Shown: one piece after another, positions 5,330-34,384 of the stretch
Layout: each line of letters opens with the position of its first letter
Position numbering within the stretch: position 1 is the first letter of the stretch
DNA from: Candidatus Woesearchaeota archaeon
GTDB lineage: Archaea > Nanobdellota > Nanobdellia > Woesearchaeales > GW2011-AR4
Assembly: GCA_023266475.1 (NCBI GenBank)
Contig: JAHFQA010000004.1
Span: 1-44,040 of the forward strand
DNA length: 44,040 nt
Direction of reading: 5' to 3'
The notes under the pieces: generated by a model
What the model was told of the DNA's origin: nothing
The model's database searches: none
The model's input: only the letters and a program-made list of their open reading frames with translations
Program-made: the position numbers and the translations under genes

Positions 5330-5761
5330 CTAAATATCAACAACAACAGTCGCTATCCAATTATTCTTTCCTTTCCTGACTTCAAACATGTGCATTGTAA
5401 TAGCCTTTATATCATTCTCAAGATGCTGTTTCTCGGGATTTATTGTGTCACCCATAAGAATTGATGTCAAATAATATTTTTTATTTTTTTCATTAATTGA
5501 AACTTCCACATCCTTGAAAACCATGTACTTTGAATCTTTTAAAAACAAAATTTCAGATAAAAAATCATATAATAAATTATCAATTTTCTCATGCTCTAGT
5601 TTAATTTCAACTTTTTCTTTGGATTCAATTGTTTTGATGTCGGCGCTTAATTCAAAAATAGCAAGAGCTGCATTCTCAAACATTTCATTTAGGTTTTTGC
5701 CGTATGCCTCATATGCAATGTCAGCGATTGCAACGTCTTCAAGAAATTTGTATTTTGGCAT
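5330..5761 (-). CDS. Archease (RtcB activator)
   Basis: 'YKFLEDVAIADIAYEAYG...FENAALA', C-terminal 'IKAITMH...VVVDI'. Confidence 0.92.
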   Translation of the reverse strand: MPKYKFLEDVAIADIAYEAYGKNLNEMFENAALAIFELSADIKTIESKEKVEIKLEHEKIDNLLYDFLSEILFLKDSKYMVFKDVEVSINEKNKKYYLTSILMGDTINPEKQHLENDIKAITMHMFEVRKGKNNWIATVVVDI

Positions 5762-7601: not shown

Positions 7602-9071
7602 TCAGCCCTTGATATTTCCCAGAGGGAAAAGAGAAACAACAGGCAATGATATTCCAGCTTGTGCCAACGTGTCCACAACTTCATTAATATTCTTATACGC
7701 AAACCCTGCCTCTTCTGCTAATCCCGGCATTGATGTTGCTTTTACATAAATTCCCCTCTTTTCCATATCTTTTTGCAATTCCTCACCCCTAACTTTATGC
7801 TTTGCAGCAGCCCTTGACATTGTTCTTCCGCTTCCATGAGCTGTGCTTCCAAAAGTTTCATCCATTGCTTTTTGAGTTCCTACAAGCAAAAAGCTTCCGG
7901 TTTCCATTGAGCCACCTATAATGACAGGCTGTCCGGTGTCCTTATATAAATTTGCAAGCTCAGGATGATTCGGAGGAAAAGCCCTTGTGCTTCCTTTTCT
8001 GTGCACAATTAATTTTTTCTTTTTTCCGTCAACTATATGCTCTTCAAGTTTTGCAATGTTGTGCGCTACATCGTAGACCATGTGCATATCCAGTTTCTCC
8101 GCTTCTGTTTTGAACACTTTTGAAAATCCCTCCCGTATCCTGTGCAAAATCACTTGCCTGTTTGTGAATGCCATGTTTGCAGCGCAAGCCATAGCCTTGT
8201 AATAGTCCTGGCCTTCATTGCTCTGAAATGGCGCACATGCAAGTTCCCTGTCATAAACTTCAATTTTGTACTTTTTCATAGCACCTTCAAATATTCTCAA
8301 ATAATCAGTTCCAATCTGATGCCCAAATCCTCTTGAGCCGCAATGCACCATAATAACAACCTGCTCCGGCATATTTATTCCAAATTTTTCCGCAATTTTT
8401 CCATCAAAAATATTTTCTGCCCTCGCTACCTGAATTTCTAAATAATGGTTCCCAGATCCAAGAGTCCCTAATTGATTAATTCCTCTTTCCAGCGCTTTTG
8501 AGCTCACTTTTTCTGCATCAGCCCATTCTATTCTTCCATGGCCTTCTGTCCTTTCCATGTCTTCTTTCCATCCATAATTATTTTCTACACACCATTTTGA
8601 GCCATTCTCTATTATTTCTCTGAACTGATTTTTATTTGCACTAACAAATCCTCTTGCTCCAACACCAGAAGGGACTGTTTTGAACATAGTGTCGACTAGT
8701 TCTTTTAATTTTGGCTGGACTTCCTTGAAAGTTAAATTTGTAGTAACCAATCTCATTCCGCAATTTATGTCAAAGCCGATTCCTCCCGGAGAGATTACGC
8801 CTGTTTCCGAATCAAAAGCTGCTACTCCTCCAATTGGAAAACCGTAGCCCCAGTGCCCATCCGGCATACAGAATGAATACTTTTGGATTCCCGGCAGGCA
8901 TGCAACGTTAGTAACTTGGTTGAAAACTCCTGCATCCATATCGTCAAAAAGTTTTTTTGTCGCATAAATTCTTGCAGGAACTAACATACCTTTTTTGTAA
9001 GATGGTGGTATCTCCCAAACAACATCACTAATTTGCTTTACGTCTTTTGGTTTTTCAAAATTCTGTTCCAT
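7602..9071 (-). CDS. rtcB: RtcB RNA 3'-phosphate/5'-OH ligase (tRNA-splicing ligase)
   Basis: 'MPDGHWGYGFPIGG', 'GFDINCG', 'GSGNHYLE', 'VHCGSRG', 'HRKGSTRA', 'STAHGSGR'; no intein. Confidence 0.97.
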   Translation of the reverse strand: MEQNFEKPKDVKQISDVVWEIPPSYKKGMLVPARIYATKKLFDDMDAGVFNQVTNVACLPGIQKYSFCMPDGHWGYGFPIGGVAAFDSETGVISPGGIGFDINCGMRLVTTNLTFKEVQPKLKELVDTMFKTVPSGVGARGFVSANKNQFREIIENGSKWCVENNYGWKEDMERTEGHGRIEWADAEKVSSKALERGINQLGTLGSGNHYLEIQVARAENIFDGKIAEKFGINMPEQVVIMVHCGSRGFGHQIGTDYLRIFEGAMKKYKIEVYDRELACAPFQSNEGQDYYKAMACAANMAFTNRQVILHRIREGFSKVFKTEAEKLDMHMVYDVAHNIAKLEEHIVDGKKKKLIVHRKGSTRAFPPNHPELANLYKDTGQPVIIGGSMETGSFLLVGTQKAMDETFGSTAHGSGRTMSRAAAKHKVRGEELQKDMEKRGIYVKATSMPGLAEEAGFAYKNINEVVDTLAQAGISLPVVSLFPLGNIKG

Positions 9072-10468: not shown

Positions 10469-10888
10469 ATGCAAGTAAAAGACCTAAAGCCAAGGCAAGG
10501 CAATGTTGACATTATTGTTGATGTAGTTGATGTAGGCGAAGCCAGGGAATTCCAGAAGTTTGGAAAGCCAGGCAGAGTTTCAAATGCAATTGCTAAGGAC
10601 GAAACAGGCGACATAAAGCTTACATTATGGAATGAAGATATTGAAAGAGTTCATTCCGGCGACAAAGTTCATTTGACAAACGGATACGTCAACGAATGGC
10701 AAGGGGAGATGCAGCTTACAACAGGAAGGATGGGCAAATTGGAAATTGTGGGTAAAGCAGATGCCGAGTTGAATAAAGGGCCAGATTCTACAATAAGAAC
10801 CAATATTCCGACAGAAAAAAGCGATGACGAAGAAATTAATGTTGAAGAAGAAGATGTAGAAGATGCCAATGATGATGAAGAGATTTAA
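10469..10888 (+). CDS. ssb: Single-stranded DNA-binding protein (single OB fold, archaeal SSB/RPA type) with acidic tail
   Basis: 'KDETGDIKLTLWNE', 'NGYVNEWQGEMQLTTGRMG', D/E-rich C-terminus. Confidence 0.9.
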   Translation: MQVKDLKPRQGNVDIIVDVVDVGEAREFQKFGKPGRVSNAIAKDETGDIKLTLWNEDIERVHSGDKVHLTNGYVNEWQGEMQLTTGRMGKLEIVGKADAELNKGPDSTIRTNIPTEKSDDEEINVEEEDVEDANDDEEI

Positions 10889-10959
10889 TTATTTCATTTC
10901 TTGAATGGTATTTTCTCAATAATCTTTCTAATAAAAATTAAATTCATGAAACACAAATA

Positions 10960-10974
10960 GAAAGTATTTTAAAT
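10960..10974 (+). promoter_or_regulatory. BRE/TATA promoter of the tRNA-Phe gene
   Basis: gaaagtaTTTTAAAT about 25 nt upstream of GG at 10997-10998 (predicted start). Confidence 0.6.
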
Positions 10975-11011
10975 TATTATCTTGTTCTTGATTTTTGGTT
11001 GGGCAGCTTAT

Positions 11012-11220
11012 GGGGATTCTATAAGCATTGTTTATAGGACCAGAACGGTAGCTCAGCCTGAGAAGGAAGCTAAAAGTCTTCGGCTATGGAGAGCACACAA
11101 CTTTTGATGTTGGCTTAAACGGCTGAAGACCGTGGTGAAAGGTTCACGTTTAGTGTACTTCCACAATCATGGATTCAAAACAACCTTAAAAAAGGTTTGC
11201 TGAAAGTTCCATCCGCCCCA
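11012..11220 (+). tRNA. tRNA-Phe(GAA) interrupted by five BHB-type introns
   Basis: Exons 11012-11015, 11046-11060, 11088-11096, 11119-11137, 11167-11179, 11207-11220 join to a 74-nt cloverleaf GGGGCGG TA GCTC AGCCTGGGA GAGC A CACGG CT GAA GA CCGTG GTGTC ATGGA TTCAAAT TCCAT CCGCCCC A with all four stems fully Watson-Crick paired; introns of 30, 27, 22, 29 and 27 nt each fold into a bulge-helix-bulge-like junction; CCA not encoded; T7 tract follows. Confidence 0.9.
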
Positions 11221-11229
11221 TTTTTTTAA

Positions 11230-13404
11230 TCAACCTACAGTTGCTACCAGAATTCTTCCAGCAATTATATTAAACAATAGCATTACAGACCCTGATATAA
11301 AAACATAAAGCAAAGTGCTTCTGATTAAATTATTCCCAAGTTGGTACCTCTCGTTTAACTTATCAGAGCCGTTTTCAACGCCGTTTGCAATAACGGTCAA
11401 TATAAAAGTGATTTGCACAACATAAATTCCCACTATAAGCTGAAAGTAGTATGTCGGAATGCCTTCTCCAAATAATCCAAGAATTCCAGTTGGAGCAGCT
11501 GCACCTTCGCCGCCGACATTTGAAGTGACTTGCTGCAATGAAGTGCTTAACTTTCCCAGAATTGTGGTAATCATAGAAGTAATTCCAATGACAACGCCAG
11601 CAATTGCAGGCGTCAAAAACTTAATCTGGGAATGCATTGAGGAAATTATGTCAGCCATCAGGTCTTTTAGCCTCTCATTAACCTTGTGAATTTCTTTGAT
11701 ATACCTTGCAACATTAGTCAATGCCTGCGCAGCAATCAAAGGGCCCTTTTTTATTGCCTGTGTCAAAACTTTCATAGAACTCTCAATCAAATTGCTTGGA
11801 AATGAAACTAACGCGCCATGCATTGGATCAAATATTGCTTTATCAATACTCATTCCTAATCTTCTTATGTTTAAACTTACCAACTGGAAAAAGCTTCCTG
11901 AAACTGTCCCTTCCATGATATCAGCGACTTTGCCAACAGCAATTTCAACAGGAAGATTGTCTCCAAGCCTATTTCCAAGCTGAAACAAGGCGCTTGCAAA
12001 CTCAAGCTCAAGCTGCTTTGCTTTCTCCCTTATTTTAATGATATTTTTTGACTTAAGCCTGTAATATAATCCAATTGCAAGCCCAAAGCTTAAAGGAATA
12101 AAAAGGCTTGCTAATGCTGCGCCCAAACCATAAGGGCCCCTGTTAAGTGAATCTCCCCTGTATTCCAAAAAGCAATATTTCTGCTTGCACGACGACGTTA
12201 AATCATCTCCGCCAATCCCAAAATCAGGAATTCCCAATGCATGGAATATTAAAGGGCTCAATCCAATCAAAAAAAATAAAACTCCAACAAAAATACTAAT
12301 AATCATTGGAGTAACCTGCAATTCCTGGTTTCCAATTCTTATTATTAGATTTCTGTATTTTTTCAGCTCTGGGTTTTCCTCGGCAATATCGGTATCGCCG
12401 TAGCCAGTTGGCCTTTTAGATAGAATATTTTTTCCAAGATAATATACAACAACTGTTAAAATTACGTTGTAGATAACTGCAAGATGGTACCATTGCACCT
12501 CTTCCATAAAGCTCACAACTAGAGGCAAGATTACTAAGCCAAGGATTGGCAGTATTATTCCAAGCATATGCAGCATCGTAATCGGATTTTGAAGGTTGTG
12601 TGTATAATGAAGCATTTTTTCATAGGTTTCGTCAAGAATCACATCCAATGATTTGTCTAAAGCATTTAACCTCCTCGACTCGTCACCTTCATACAGAGAA
12701 CTCTCAATTAAGTGAAAGGCTTCAATAAACTCAAGATTCCACTTTTTCCATGTTTCAAGGTACATATCAAGGGATTCCTTTACAGAGGAATATTTTTCTG
12801 TCTCGACATCCCACAGCACTTTTTTCAAATCAAGCGACAATGGAGGCGAAAGGTGCTGGCTTGCGAATTCAATTGCATTTTCAAGGTTAGAGGTATGCCT
12901 CATATAGGTCACAGTGTAGAATACGCAAAGAACCATTTGGTTGCTTGCCTTCAGGCGCCAGTTATTTGCAAGAAACTCAGGAATTTTTCCACATGGCCTT
13001 ATCATAACCAATGCCCCAATCAAAAATAAAAAAACAAAAAATGTTGACTGGAATATCAAGTATGCAAGCAATGGAATAAAAATTGCAATAACCGAAGGAA
13101 GCAAAAATGAAAAGGAAACTGCTCCTGAAGGCGTTATCTTAAGGTGAATGATGTCGATTGCCTCCTGTAATTCATTTGCCCTTTGTTGCCCGGGCTTTAT
13201 CCTCAGGATTTTCTCGCTTAGGTTGCATAATTTCTCGTACAAACTCATGTGTTTAGGCAAAAATTCTGCCTTGAATTCTTGGTATTCCCTAGTTGTGGGC
13301 TGAGGCGCAGATTTTTCGAATTTTGCTCCCAGCTCTTTCTCCAAGTGCCTCTTATAAATCTCCATCAATGACAGAAGCTTTTGCTTATCTAATTCCGATG
13401 GCAT
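11230..13404 (-). CDS. Type IV pilus/Tad/T2SS membrane platform protein (TadB/TadC/ArlJ-like, long form)
   Basis: 724 aa polytopic membrane protein with two soluble+TM repeats, immediately downstream of a secretion ATPase. Confidence 0.8.
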   Translation of the reverse strand: MPSELDKQKLLSLMEIYKRHLEKELGAKFEKSAPQPTTREYQEFKAEFLPKHMSLYEKLCNLSEKILRIKPGQQRANELQEAIDIIHLKITPSGAVSFSFLLPSVIAIFIPLLAYLIFQSTFFVFLFLIGALVMIRPCGKIPEFLANNWRLKASNQMVLCVFYTVTYMRHTSNLENAIEFASQHLSPPLSLDLKKVLWDVETEKYSSVKESLDMYLETWKKWNLEFIEAFHLIESSLYEGDESRRLNALDKSLDVILDETYEKMLHYTHNLQNPITMLHMLGIILPILGLVILPLVVSFMEEVQWYHLAVIYNVILTVVVYYLGKNILSKRPTGYGDTDIAEENPELKKYRNLIIRIGNQELQVTPMIISIFVGVLFFLIGLSPLIFHALGIPDFGIGGDDLTSSCKQKYCFLEYRGDSLNRGPYGLGAALASLFIPLSFGLAIGLYYRLKSKNIIKIREKAKQLELEFASALFQLGNRLGDNLPVEIAVGKVADIMEGTVSGSFFQLVSLNIRRLGMSIDKAIFDPMHGALVSFPSNLIESSMKVLTQAIKKGPLIAAQALTNVARYIKEIHKVNERLKDLMADIISSMHSQIKFLTPAIAGVVIGITSMITTILGKLSTSLQQVTSNVGGEGAAAPTGILGLFGEGIPTYYFQLIVGIYVVQITFILTVIANGVENGSDKLNERYQLGNNLIRSTLLYVFISGSVMLLFNIIAGRILVATVG

Positions 13405-34310: not shown

Positions 34311-34384
34311 TGGTGGGCCCAAAGAGAATTGAACTCTTGCCCCAACCCTGTGAAGGTTGTGTTCTGCCACTAGACCATGGGCCC
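34311..34384 (-). tRNA. tRNA-Val(CAC), intronless, CCA encoded
   Basis: GGGCCCA/TGGGCCC acceptor stem, CAACC-TT CAC AG-GGTTG anticodon arm, AAGAG-TTCAATT-CTCTT T arm, 3' ACCA. Confidence 0.93.

Follow-up and report, generated by a model that had tools for sequence, protein, structure and literature searches.

The question addressed here is whether 209 nt of intergenic DNA, in which annotation tools see no gene, can hold a complete tRNA-Phe(GAA) in six pieces, and how such a gene would be processed. We studied it in the window, the whole analysed stretch of 44,040 nt, which belongs to a Candidatus Woesearchaeota (DPANN) metagenome-assembled genome (MAG) of 1.32 Mb in 80 contigs with 35% G+C (87.9% complete, hereafter 88%). 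A preliminary description, made from the letters alone, had read the locus as a tRNA-Phe(GAA) interrupted by five BHB-type introns, none of them at 37/38, and had given exon and intron coordinates and a 74-nt cloverleaf.

Six colinear exons join into a complete tRNA-Phe(GAA)

The locus at 11012-11220 sits in a 342-nt intergenic gap between an SSB-like OB-fold gene and a large ORF on the opposite strand (Table 1). When the predicted introns, 135 of the 209 nt in total, were removed, the exons (4+15+9+19+13+14 nt) gave a 74-nt product with 60.8% G+C and four fully paired stems, which ARAGORN called as tRNA-Phe(gaa). The coordinates, the cloverleaf and the count of five introns, with none at 37/38, were therefore borne out, and the Sprinzl sites 4/5, 18/19, 27/28, 46/47 and 59/60 agreed with the linear positions 4, 19, 28, 47 and 60 of the product.

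A tRNA-Phe is recognised by a GAA anticodon in a 7-nt loop, U33, a purine at position 37, the discriminator A73 and G20. All of these elements were found in the joined product, which has the anticodon loop CTGAAGA, the D loop AGCCTGGGA and an A at the 3′ end. G53:C61 is a near-universal tertiary pair of tRNA; here the T stem was closed by A53:U61 instead, which retains a Watson-Crick pair and was common to 9 of the 12 resolved orthologues described below, the other 3 carrying G:C.

Upstream of the gene, a purine-rich BRE-like stretch is followed by a TATA-like box, together a putative promoter of the archaeal type. A BRE/TATA-like motif 30-45 nt upstream was kept in the orthologous genes of 10 genomes of the same genus; the upstream box was similar in G028, a genome of another family, and more divergent and AT-rich in G025. 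T-rich trailers were also found downstream of the orthologues.

Table 1. Features of the tRNA-Phe(GAA) locus and of its surroundings in the window
Feature	Position	Strand	Description
Archease gene (RtcB cofactor)	5333..5752	-	PF01951, E 8.8e-40
RtcB tRNA-splicing ligase gene	7605..8918	-	PF01139, E 2.5e-171
SSB-like OB-fold gene	10469-10888	+	left neighbour of the gap
Putative archaeal promoter	10959..10974	+	purine-rich BRE-like stretch, then TATA-like box TTTTAAAT at 10967-10974
5′ leader	10997..11011	+	10997-11004 can pair with exon 2 (11051-11058)
Exon 1	11012..11015	+	tRNA positions 1-4
Intron 1	11016..11045	+	30 nt, site 4/5; central helix 3/4, 10-bp inner hairpin
Exon 2	11046..11060	+	tRNA positions 5-18
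Intron 2	11061..11087	+	27 nt, site 18/19; outer helix 3, central 4/4, inner 5
Exon 3	11088..11096	+	tRNA positions 19-27
Intron 3	11097..11118	+	22 nt, site 27/28; central 4/4, inner 4, outer helix absent
Exon 4	11119..11137	+	tRNA positions 28-46; entire anticodon arm including GAA
Intron 4	11138..11166	+	29 nt, site 46/47; central 4/4, inner 3, outer helix absent
Exon 5	11167..11179	+	tRNA positions 47-59
Intron 5	11180..11206	+	27 nt, site 59/60 (T loop); central 4/4, outer 5
Exon 6	11207..11220	+	tRNA positions 60-73; discriminator A at end; CCA not encoded
Run of seven T	11221..11227	+	likely transcription stop (putative function)
724-aa ORF	11230-13404	-	right neighbour of the gap; Pfam match: none

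The gene escapes standard annotation

The expectation that standard annotators would miss the gene was confirmed for ARAGORN and Infernal/Rfam on the genomic sequence. ARAGORN reported no gene in the unspliced segment 10950-11280, nor at the locus within the window. Rfam gave no match at the locus at the gathering score, and none of the 25 matches to RF00005 at E≤1 in the whole genome fell there. The intron-free orthologue of G028, identical to the joined product at 59 of 74 positions, scored 67.2 bits with RF00005.

It had also been proposed that the lineage would seem tRNA-poor to such tools. Indeed, Rfam tRNA matches above the cut-off numbered 18 in this genome and 14 in a closed genome of the same order. 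We further counted RF00005 matches (E≤1e-5, with stricter filters) in one genome per family of the order, each at least 90% complete (n=60). The counts ranged from 4 to 43, with 14 or fewer detectable tRNAs in the genomes of 18 of the 60 families and 30 or more in those of 21; a genome from a different genus of the same family gave 31. Low tRNA detectability across the order is patchy.

All five junctions lie in the exact BHB register

In the geometry used here, the 5′ side of a BHB motif consists of four exon nt, two further exon nt and the cut, and the 3′ side of four intron nt, two further intron nt and the cut. The register was exact at all five junctions, with four of four central pairs in introns 2-5 and three of four in intron 1, and the central helices listed in the preliminary description, each with the cut past the second nt of a 3-nt bulge, were reproduced. 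Its broader claim, that every intron is a BHB intron, stood for the register but not for the strict form of the motif. The strict form (hBHBh′) requires exon-side and intron-side helices that are each 2 bp or longer; it was complete in intron 2 alone (3 and 5 bp), and the other four introns were relaxed. In intron 1 the flanking helices are both present, with 2 bp and an 8-bp leader helix on the exon side and 10 bp on the intron side, and only the central helix falls short. The exon-side helix is missing from introns 3 and 4, whose intron-side helices have 4 and 3 bp, and in intron 5 the inner hairpin is set back and a 5-nt unpaired stretch replaces the 3-nt 5′ bulge. These relaxed introns fit the relaxed BHB classes of the literature. 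In the minimum free energy (MFE) fold of the full precursor, which had a z-score of -2.4, the central helices of introns 3 and 5 only were formed (2 of 5).

The same register was found among 43 introns of 12 orthologous genes, where 41 had at least three of the four central pairs and 29 had all four, while sliding the boundaries by 1-3 nt left 0-1 of the 43 with four. The remaining two introns, whose boundaries the aligner had shifted, were placed by the structure-based finder at 4/5 and 27/28, with three of four pairs each, and a product-preserving boundary shift was required in 3 of the 43 junctions only.

A cloverleaf might also be obtained by chance from arbitrary deletions in AT-rich intergenic DNA. 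This was measured with a cloverleaf-plus-BHB search, in which the cloverleaf was walked through optional BHB-bounded skips, over 697 regions that contain no ORF of 110 aa or longer (both strands of 236 kb). Eighteen loci scored 36 or more; 17 were confirmed by ARAGORN once spliced, all 17 with scores of at least 51, and the tRNA-Phe locus came top of the 18 with a score of 58 and no mismatches. In reversed-sequence controls, 7 solutions appeared at 2 loci, the best scoring 38. The relaxed finder does yield spurious solutions, among them a false GAA solution of score 55 on contig C30 besides the control matches. However, beyond the clean score of 58, the exons have 61% G+C compared with 35% for the whole genome, and the same product is obtained from orthologues with other intron sets. 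The orthologues already refute the chance reading, whose probability we regard as negligible.

Relatives carry the same tRNA with other sets of introns

When 40 relatives were searched with the locus by BLAST and the matches put through motif-free spliced alignment, the gene was recovered from 11 genomes, and a second fetch of 20 regions added 8 usable loci (L072-L075, L081, L083, L084-L086, L088 and L089 were dropped as noise, and L080 was a partial second match only). The structure-based finder resolved 12 of the 20 Phe loci, all with no stem mismatches. For the other eight the counts came from the motif-free alignment; four of them have a 20/21 intron with the inner helix set back, and the others are divergent or at a contig end. 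The gene was present in all 20 genomes examined and interrupted in 19, and the intron number was settled in 16, with G005, G032, G040 and G004 left out of the counts. Five introns were found in the source genome (G000), four in G022, G009, G024, G025 and G011 and, by alignment only, in G021, three in G006, G016 and G003 and, by alignment only, in G001, G018 and G007, two in G002 and G013, and none in G028.

The introns of the relatives occupy eight sites of the tRNA, 4/5, 14/15, 18/19, 20/21, 27/28, 37/38, 46/47 and 59/60, and no genome examined had introns at more than one of the three D-loop sites. All five sites of the source genome recur in relatives with recognisably similar intron sequence. 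Site 18/19 was also filled in G006, G025 and G003, site 46/47 in G006, G022, G024, G025, G003 and G011, and site 59/60 in G022, G024, G009, G003, G021 and G007; homologous introns at 27/28 were present in G006, G009, G011, G025, G021, G001, G005 and G018. Conversely, each of the five junctions was continuous DNA, identical to the predicted splice product, in at least one relative. Site 4/5, for example, was empty and its junction continuous in G006, G022, G024, G003, G011, G002 and G013, and G006, with 91% identity over introns 2-4, exactly lacks introns 1 and 5.

The 12 resolved mature sequences had standard pairs in 252 of 252 stem cells. Both-sided, compensatory changes were seen in 11 of the 21 stem pairs and only 3 unpaired positions varied, in genomes that are kin, so that these counts are not independent events. 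Given the continuous junctions, the intact stems and the compensatory pairs, the comparison of these sequences indicates that the locus is a real and functional tRNA-Phe gene under selection, neither a chance product nor a relic.

The intron and upstream sequences had no significant second copy in the genome. A mobile repeat family as the source of the introns was therefore rejected, and tracing hidden tRNAs through a shared promoter was dropped. The possible protection from integrases put forward in the preliminary description found no support in these data, and the locus showed nothing indicative of an integration site.

Contigs of four DNA runs link each pair of adjacent introns

The locus was covered with no differences by DNA contigs of four runs (Logan). 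Since all four come from a single study whose samples may include the source, they do not count as independent evidence. Exact-match pieces at 10972-11060, 11031-11103, 11074-11136, 11107-11148 and 11127-11500 link every adjacent pair of introns. These data bear on whether strains with fewer introns each were stitched by the assembly into one five-intron gene. The same metagenomes hold many gene variants with other intron sets, including forms with exon 1 directly joined to exon 2, and no single Logan contig spans the whole gene, as a chimera would predict. However, the exact-match contigs join introns 1-2-3, 2-3, 3-4 and 4-5, and all five sites are found in other assembled genomes, four of them together in several. 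We thus consider a chimera very unlikely.

The 5′ leader takes part in the first intron motif

Exon 1 has 4 nt only, and the central helix of intron 1 begins with two nucleotides of the leader, 11010-11011. Moreover, the MFE fold of the precursor contained an 8-bp helix between the leader and exon 2, which also appeared in the RNAalifold consensus of the 4 orthologues with a 4/5 intron. All 4 genes with the 4/5 intron, and none of the 8 without it, have a leader element that can pair with the D-arm portion of exon 2. The genes with this intron also have a longer leader, in which one-sided changes preserve the pairing. We infer that an exon of 4 nt is too short to provide the exon-side half of the motif and that the leader provides it instead.

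Two points on the order of processing follow from this arrangement. The central helix of intron 1 uses leader nucleotides and is supported by the leader helix, suggesting that intron 1 would be removed ahead of leader trimming by RNase P. In addition, the leader helix and the BHB of intron 2 share the same four D-loop nucleotides and cannot coexist; their competition would impose an ordered removal.

Interrupted tRNA genes are widespread in the genome

About 34 tRNA genes were resolved in the genome, some 30 of them interrupted. The strict finder contributed 17, the relaxed finder 7 and a homology scan 10, the last using 30 intron-free tRNAs of G028 as queries and giving approximate boundaries. 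Four genes had no intron, 16 had one, 10 had two, and two had three (an initiator-like Met at C61:16574-16722 and a class-II gene at C17:2048-2246). Four introns were found in one gene, Trp CCA at C40:23954-24139, and five in Phe only. The mean of about 1.5 introns per gene is a lower bound, several isoacceptors being missing from the census, in which Tyr, Ala-TGC and other expected isoacceptors were not found. By these predicted gene structures, tRNA-Phe is the most interrupted gene found in the genome and interruption is the rule in the lineage; the census being incomplete, five may not be the maximum of the genome.

ARAGORN, Infernal, the cloverleaf finder and the homology scan with the Phe tRNA of G028 detected no further GAA tRNA in the 88%-complete assembly. 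An ARAGORN call of 'Phe gaa' on C30 was rejected, as the gene is a tRNA-Leu(CAA) with two introns; its Leu identity was established by similarity and alignment to the genome's own tRNA-Leu(TAG) on C1 and to the intron-free Leu(CAA) of G028. A class-I GAA solution of the relaxed finder on C30 (score 55, with a 1-nt exon) was rejected after the same comparisons.

The incompleteness of the assembly means that a second Phe gene could be unassembled, and the locus might then be a decaying pseudogene, with a working tRNA-Phe in the missing part (about 12%) of the genome. Such a relic would also suit the unusual A53:U61 pair and the failure to find an RNA run covering the stretch. Nevertheless, none of the 21 stem pairs is broken, either here or in any of the 12 resolved orthologues, and 11 of the pairs show compensatory changes. 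The gene persists in all 20 genomes, interrupted in 19 and with its introns settled in 16, four separate searches found no replacement, and A53:U61 is the common state among the orthologues (9 of 12). Taken together, these results make a pseudogene extremely improbable.

A single EndA gene and a ligase with its cofactor are encoded

The EndA gene at C34:963-1565 encodes 200 aa with an N and a C domain (PF02778 plus PF01974). In alpha4-type EndA, one gene encodes about 180 aa comprising a single N and a single C domain, and a beta paralogue is absent; judged by its sequence, the Woesearchaeote enzyme is of this single-gene type. No EndA paralogue was found among the six-frame ORFs, where phmmer returned the gene itself and a next match with an E-value of 2.3. 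Five related genomes, among them the closed G039 and the intron-poor G028, had one PF01974 match apiece. The nearest solved structures were the alpha subunit of N. equitans (3IEY_A, E 1.7e-36) and the M. jannaschii enzyme (1A79, E 2.9e-34). Residues 36-200 aligned with residues 9-171 of 1A79 with no indel beyond about 2 residues, and the 'L3' loop of Kaneta et al. (PMC5829648) could not be placed on this EndA from the description available in that article. Relatives of the gene came from Candidatus Woesearchaeota, Nanoarchaeota or Nanoarchaeia MAGs. Several TPA records among these relatives are labelled "uncultured Methanosarcinales" and some "archaeon", the named sources being groundwater.

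The genome also encodes RtcB and archease, both in the window and 2-6 kb upstream of tRNA-Phe, and an RNase P RNA on C57. It is very probable that the locus is a tRNA-Phe(GAA) gene, the only one found in the genome, and that its five-intron precursor is cut by EndA and joined by RtcB with archease. A precursor of about 230 nt would be transcribed with five introns of 22-30 nt, which interrupt the acceptor stem, the D loop, the junction of the D stem and anticodon stem, the variable loop and the T loop. Each intron would fold with its flanking exon, and intron 1 also with the 5′ leader, into a BHB of two 3-nt bulges with a 4-bp helix between them. The single alpha-type EndA would then cut every bulge, ten cuts altogether, and RtcB with archease would ligate the six exons before RNase P and CCA addition complete the tRNA. 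No RNA run covering the tRNA-Phe stretch was found, and for this reason we treat splicing as inferred; transcription, cleavage, ligation and their order are predicted from the gene anatomy, the BHB register, the conservation and covariation of the spliced product and the enzyme genes, all of which were directly observed.

It is also conceivable that the gene is real and that at least one relaxed insertion (3, 4 or 5) is removed by a non-EndA route, sequentially, or with a helper. Four of the five motifs are relaxed, the only EndA is of the alpha type and has no insert relative to the M. jannaschii enzyme, and the central helices of introns 1, 2 and 4 are missing from the MFE fold. On the other hand, the register of 4-bp helix and 3-nt bulges is exact at the five junctions and conserved at the same sites in relatives, and inserts of 22-30 nt fit no other intron type. 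Further, alpha4-type EndAs with the L3 loop occur in DPANN lineages with much tRNA disruption, according to the available part of PMC5829648. This reading is therefore distinctly unlikely, and under removal by EndA the lone alpha-type enzyme would appear to serve ten sites, most of them relaxed, which makes the rule that "alpha4 is strict" directly testable.

Comparison with other interrupted tRNA genes

Split and permuted tRNA genes, which PMC8450103 also mentions, are known in Nanoarchaeum equitans and Caldivirga maquilingensis. They resemble the present case in that BHB-like motifs formed partly from the leader or trailer guide EndA. In contrast, the six exons of the Woesearchaeote tRNA-Phe are colinear, on one strand and within 209 nt, and the gene, which is neither split nor permuted, would be spliced in cis.

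The accessible text of the tRNAscan-SE 2.0 paper (PMC8450103) gives up to three introns in archaeal tRNA genes, 0.84 per gene in Thermoproteales, and for Pyrobaculum calidifontis 71 introns in 46 tRNA genes with at most three per gene. The maximum of about three given in the preliminary description agrees with this source. It does not agree with an Asgard preprint of 15 Oct 2026 (10.64898/2026.10.13.758758), the available part of which reports 'up to five in a single gene' and a mean of 2.2 intervening sequences per tRNA gene in the focal families. Because of that preprint, the five introns of tRNA-Phe tie, and do not exceed, the highest number reported per tRNA gene. Apart from the Asgard preprint, our search of the main text of open articles found no archaeal tRNA gene with four or five introns, and within the same scope it found no gene-level account for Woesearchaeota or DPANN. 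The tRNA-Phe gene is thus the first gene-level description for DPANN that we could find.

The gene shares with those of Thermoproteales the short BHB introns at canonical and non-canonical sites, several per gene, strict and relaxed motifs, and EndA and RtcB. It differs in having five introns in a 74-nt tRNA, none at 37/38, and a first exon of 4 nt. Its mesophilic DPANN host has a single alpha-type EndA gene and not an (alpha-beta)2 enzyme with the crenarchaeal loop, and the intron sequences are not repeated between genes of the genome. In the Asgard archaea, as far as the accessible part of the preprint goes, most tRNA genes are likewise interrupted at BHB sites, many are missed by a standard annotator, and the intron burden is not explained by EndA architecture. 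The Woesearchaeote belongs to another superphylum (DPANN) and habitat. Moreover, in the available Asgard text the genes were found and some introns missed, whereas here the entire gene is invisible to ARAGORN and Infernal.

Kaneta et al. 2018 (PMC5829648), in the part of the article available, describe alpha4-type EndAs as strict. They also report that alpha4-type EndAs in DPANN, including one Woesearchaeota MAG, go with more tRNA disruption, and that gaps in the predicted tRNA sets suggest disrupted genes still to be identified. That part of the article gives no gene-level description of the hidden genes. The broad specificity is there attributed to the 'L3' loop, which was not located in the Woesearchaeote EndA.

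Implications

These comparisons raise the question of whether Woesearchaeales are a second, independent hot spot of extreme tRNA fragmentation besides Asgard archaea and Thermoproteales. This reading draws on at least eight sites in one tRNA within the genus, up to five introns per gene, a 4-nt exon with a leader-built motif, and a plain alpha4-type EndA that has no recognisable specificity loop. We put it forward tentatively, as a little short of an even chance. If it is true, a third of the families of the order would have mostly unannotated tRNA sets, among them families with closed genomes showing 4-14 detectable tRNAs, and alpha4 enzymes would not be intrinsically strict.

In any case, the known phenomenon of tRNA interruption is extended to DPANN at the current record level, by way of a mechanism that probably involves EndA and RtcB, and how an apparently plain alpha-type EndA copes with relaxed motifs is open to test. 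The presence or absence of introns at eight sites among close species offers a clean system for dating gain and loss. Since whole genes such as Phe and Trp are invisible and few tRNAs are detectable in 18 of the 60 families, the tRNA counts used in MAG quality standards and the inference of codon usage are badly biased for this Woesearchaeote lineage.

Splicing genes, upstream region and T arm of the tRNA-Phe gene

Archease and RtcB, the machinery that joins tRNA exons, are encoded upstream of the five-intron tRNA-Phe gene, at a distance of 2-6 kb. EndA is encoded on another contig of the source genome (G000). Its N terminus is extended by about 30 residues, rich in Lys and Glu, that have no counterpart in the solved EndA structures from M. 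jannaschii and N. equitans. The length of the EndA ORF in relatives ranges from 179 to 231 aa.

Upstream of the tRNA-Phe gene, at window 10943-10996, the summed depth of contigs from four metagenomes was 5-15 times that of the flanks, which fits a conserved BRE/TATA-like upstream element common to many related organisms.

In the T arm of the spliced tRNA-Phe (window 11167-11220), the T stem is closed by A53:U61 instead of the near-universal G53:C61. We identified the same pair in 9 of the 12 resolved tRNA-Phe orthologues, each of them with the T loop TTCAAAT. Among the resolved genes, the intron site 59/60 in the T loop was found only in this A53:U61/TTCAAAT type.

Other tRNA genes of the window, the genome and the order

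The only tRNA of the window detected by standard tools was tRNA-Val(CAC), the D stem of which has a C12-A23 mismatch. Elsewhere in the genome, tRNA-Trp(CCA) was undetected by both ARAGORN and Infernal, and ranks second in interruption among the genes found. The D loop of tRNA-Thr(GGT) has no GG dinucleotide and its T loop reads TGCAAAT, with G at position 55. ARAGORN also called a Phe(gaa) with a 66-nt intron at C30:428-588; this call was rejected and the gene was assigned to tRNA-Leu(CAA), because it shows homology to two leucine tRNAs, Leu(TAG) of the same genome and Leu(CAA) of G028, an intron-poor relative from another family.

Features of the window and of the source genome G000
Feature	Location	Strand	Introns	Basis or role
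Archease gene	window 5333-5752	-		tRNA exon-joining machinery
RtcB ligase gene	window 7605-8918	-		tRNA exon-joining machinery
EndA gene	L001 963-1565 (G000:C34)	-		
tRNA-Val(CAC)	window 34311-34384	-	none	standard tools
tRNA-Trp(CCA)	G000:C40:23954-24139	+	four BHB (17, 45, 29, 21 nt)	
tRNA-Thr(GGT)	G000:C15:27400-27483	-	one (11 nt)	
tRNA-Leu(CAA)	G000:C30:428-588	-	two	homology

Matches to the Rfam tRNA model RF00005 numbered 40-42 in G028, and were very few in members of the order with complete or almost complete genomes: 12-14 in the closed genome G039, 9 in G086 and 4 in G091. In these three genomes, the majority of tRNA genes presumably escape detection in the same manner.
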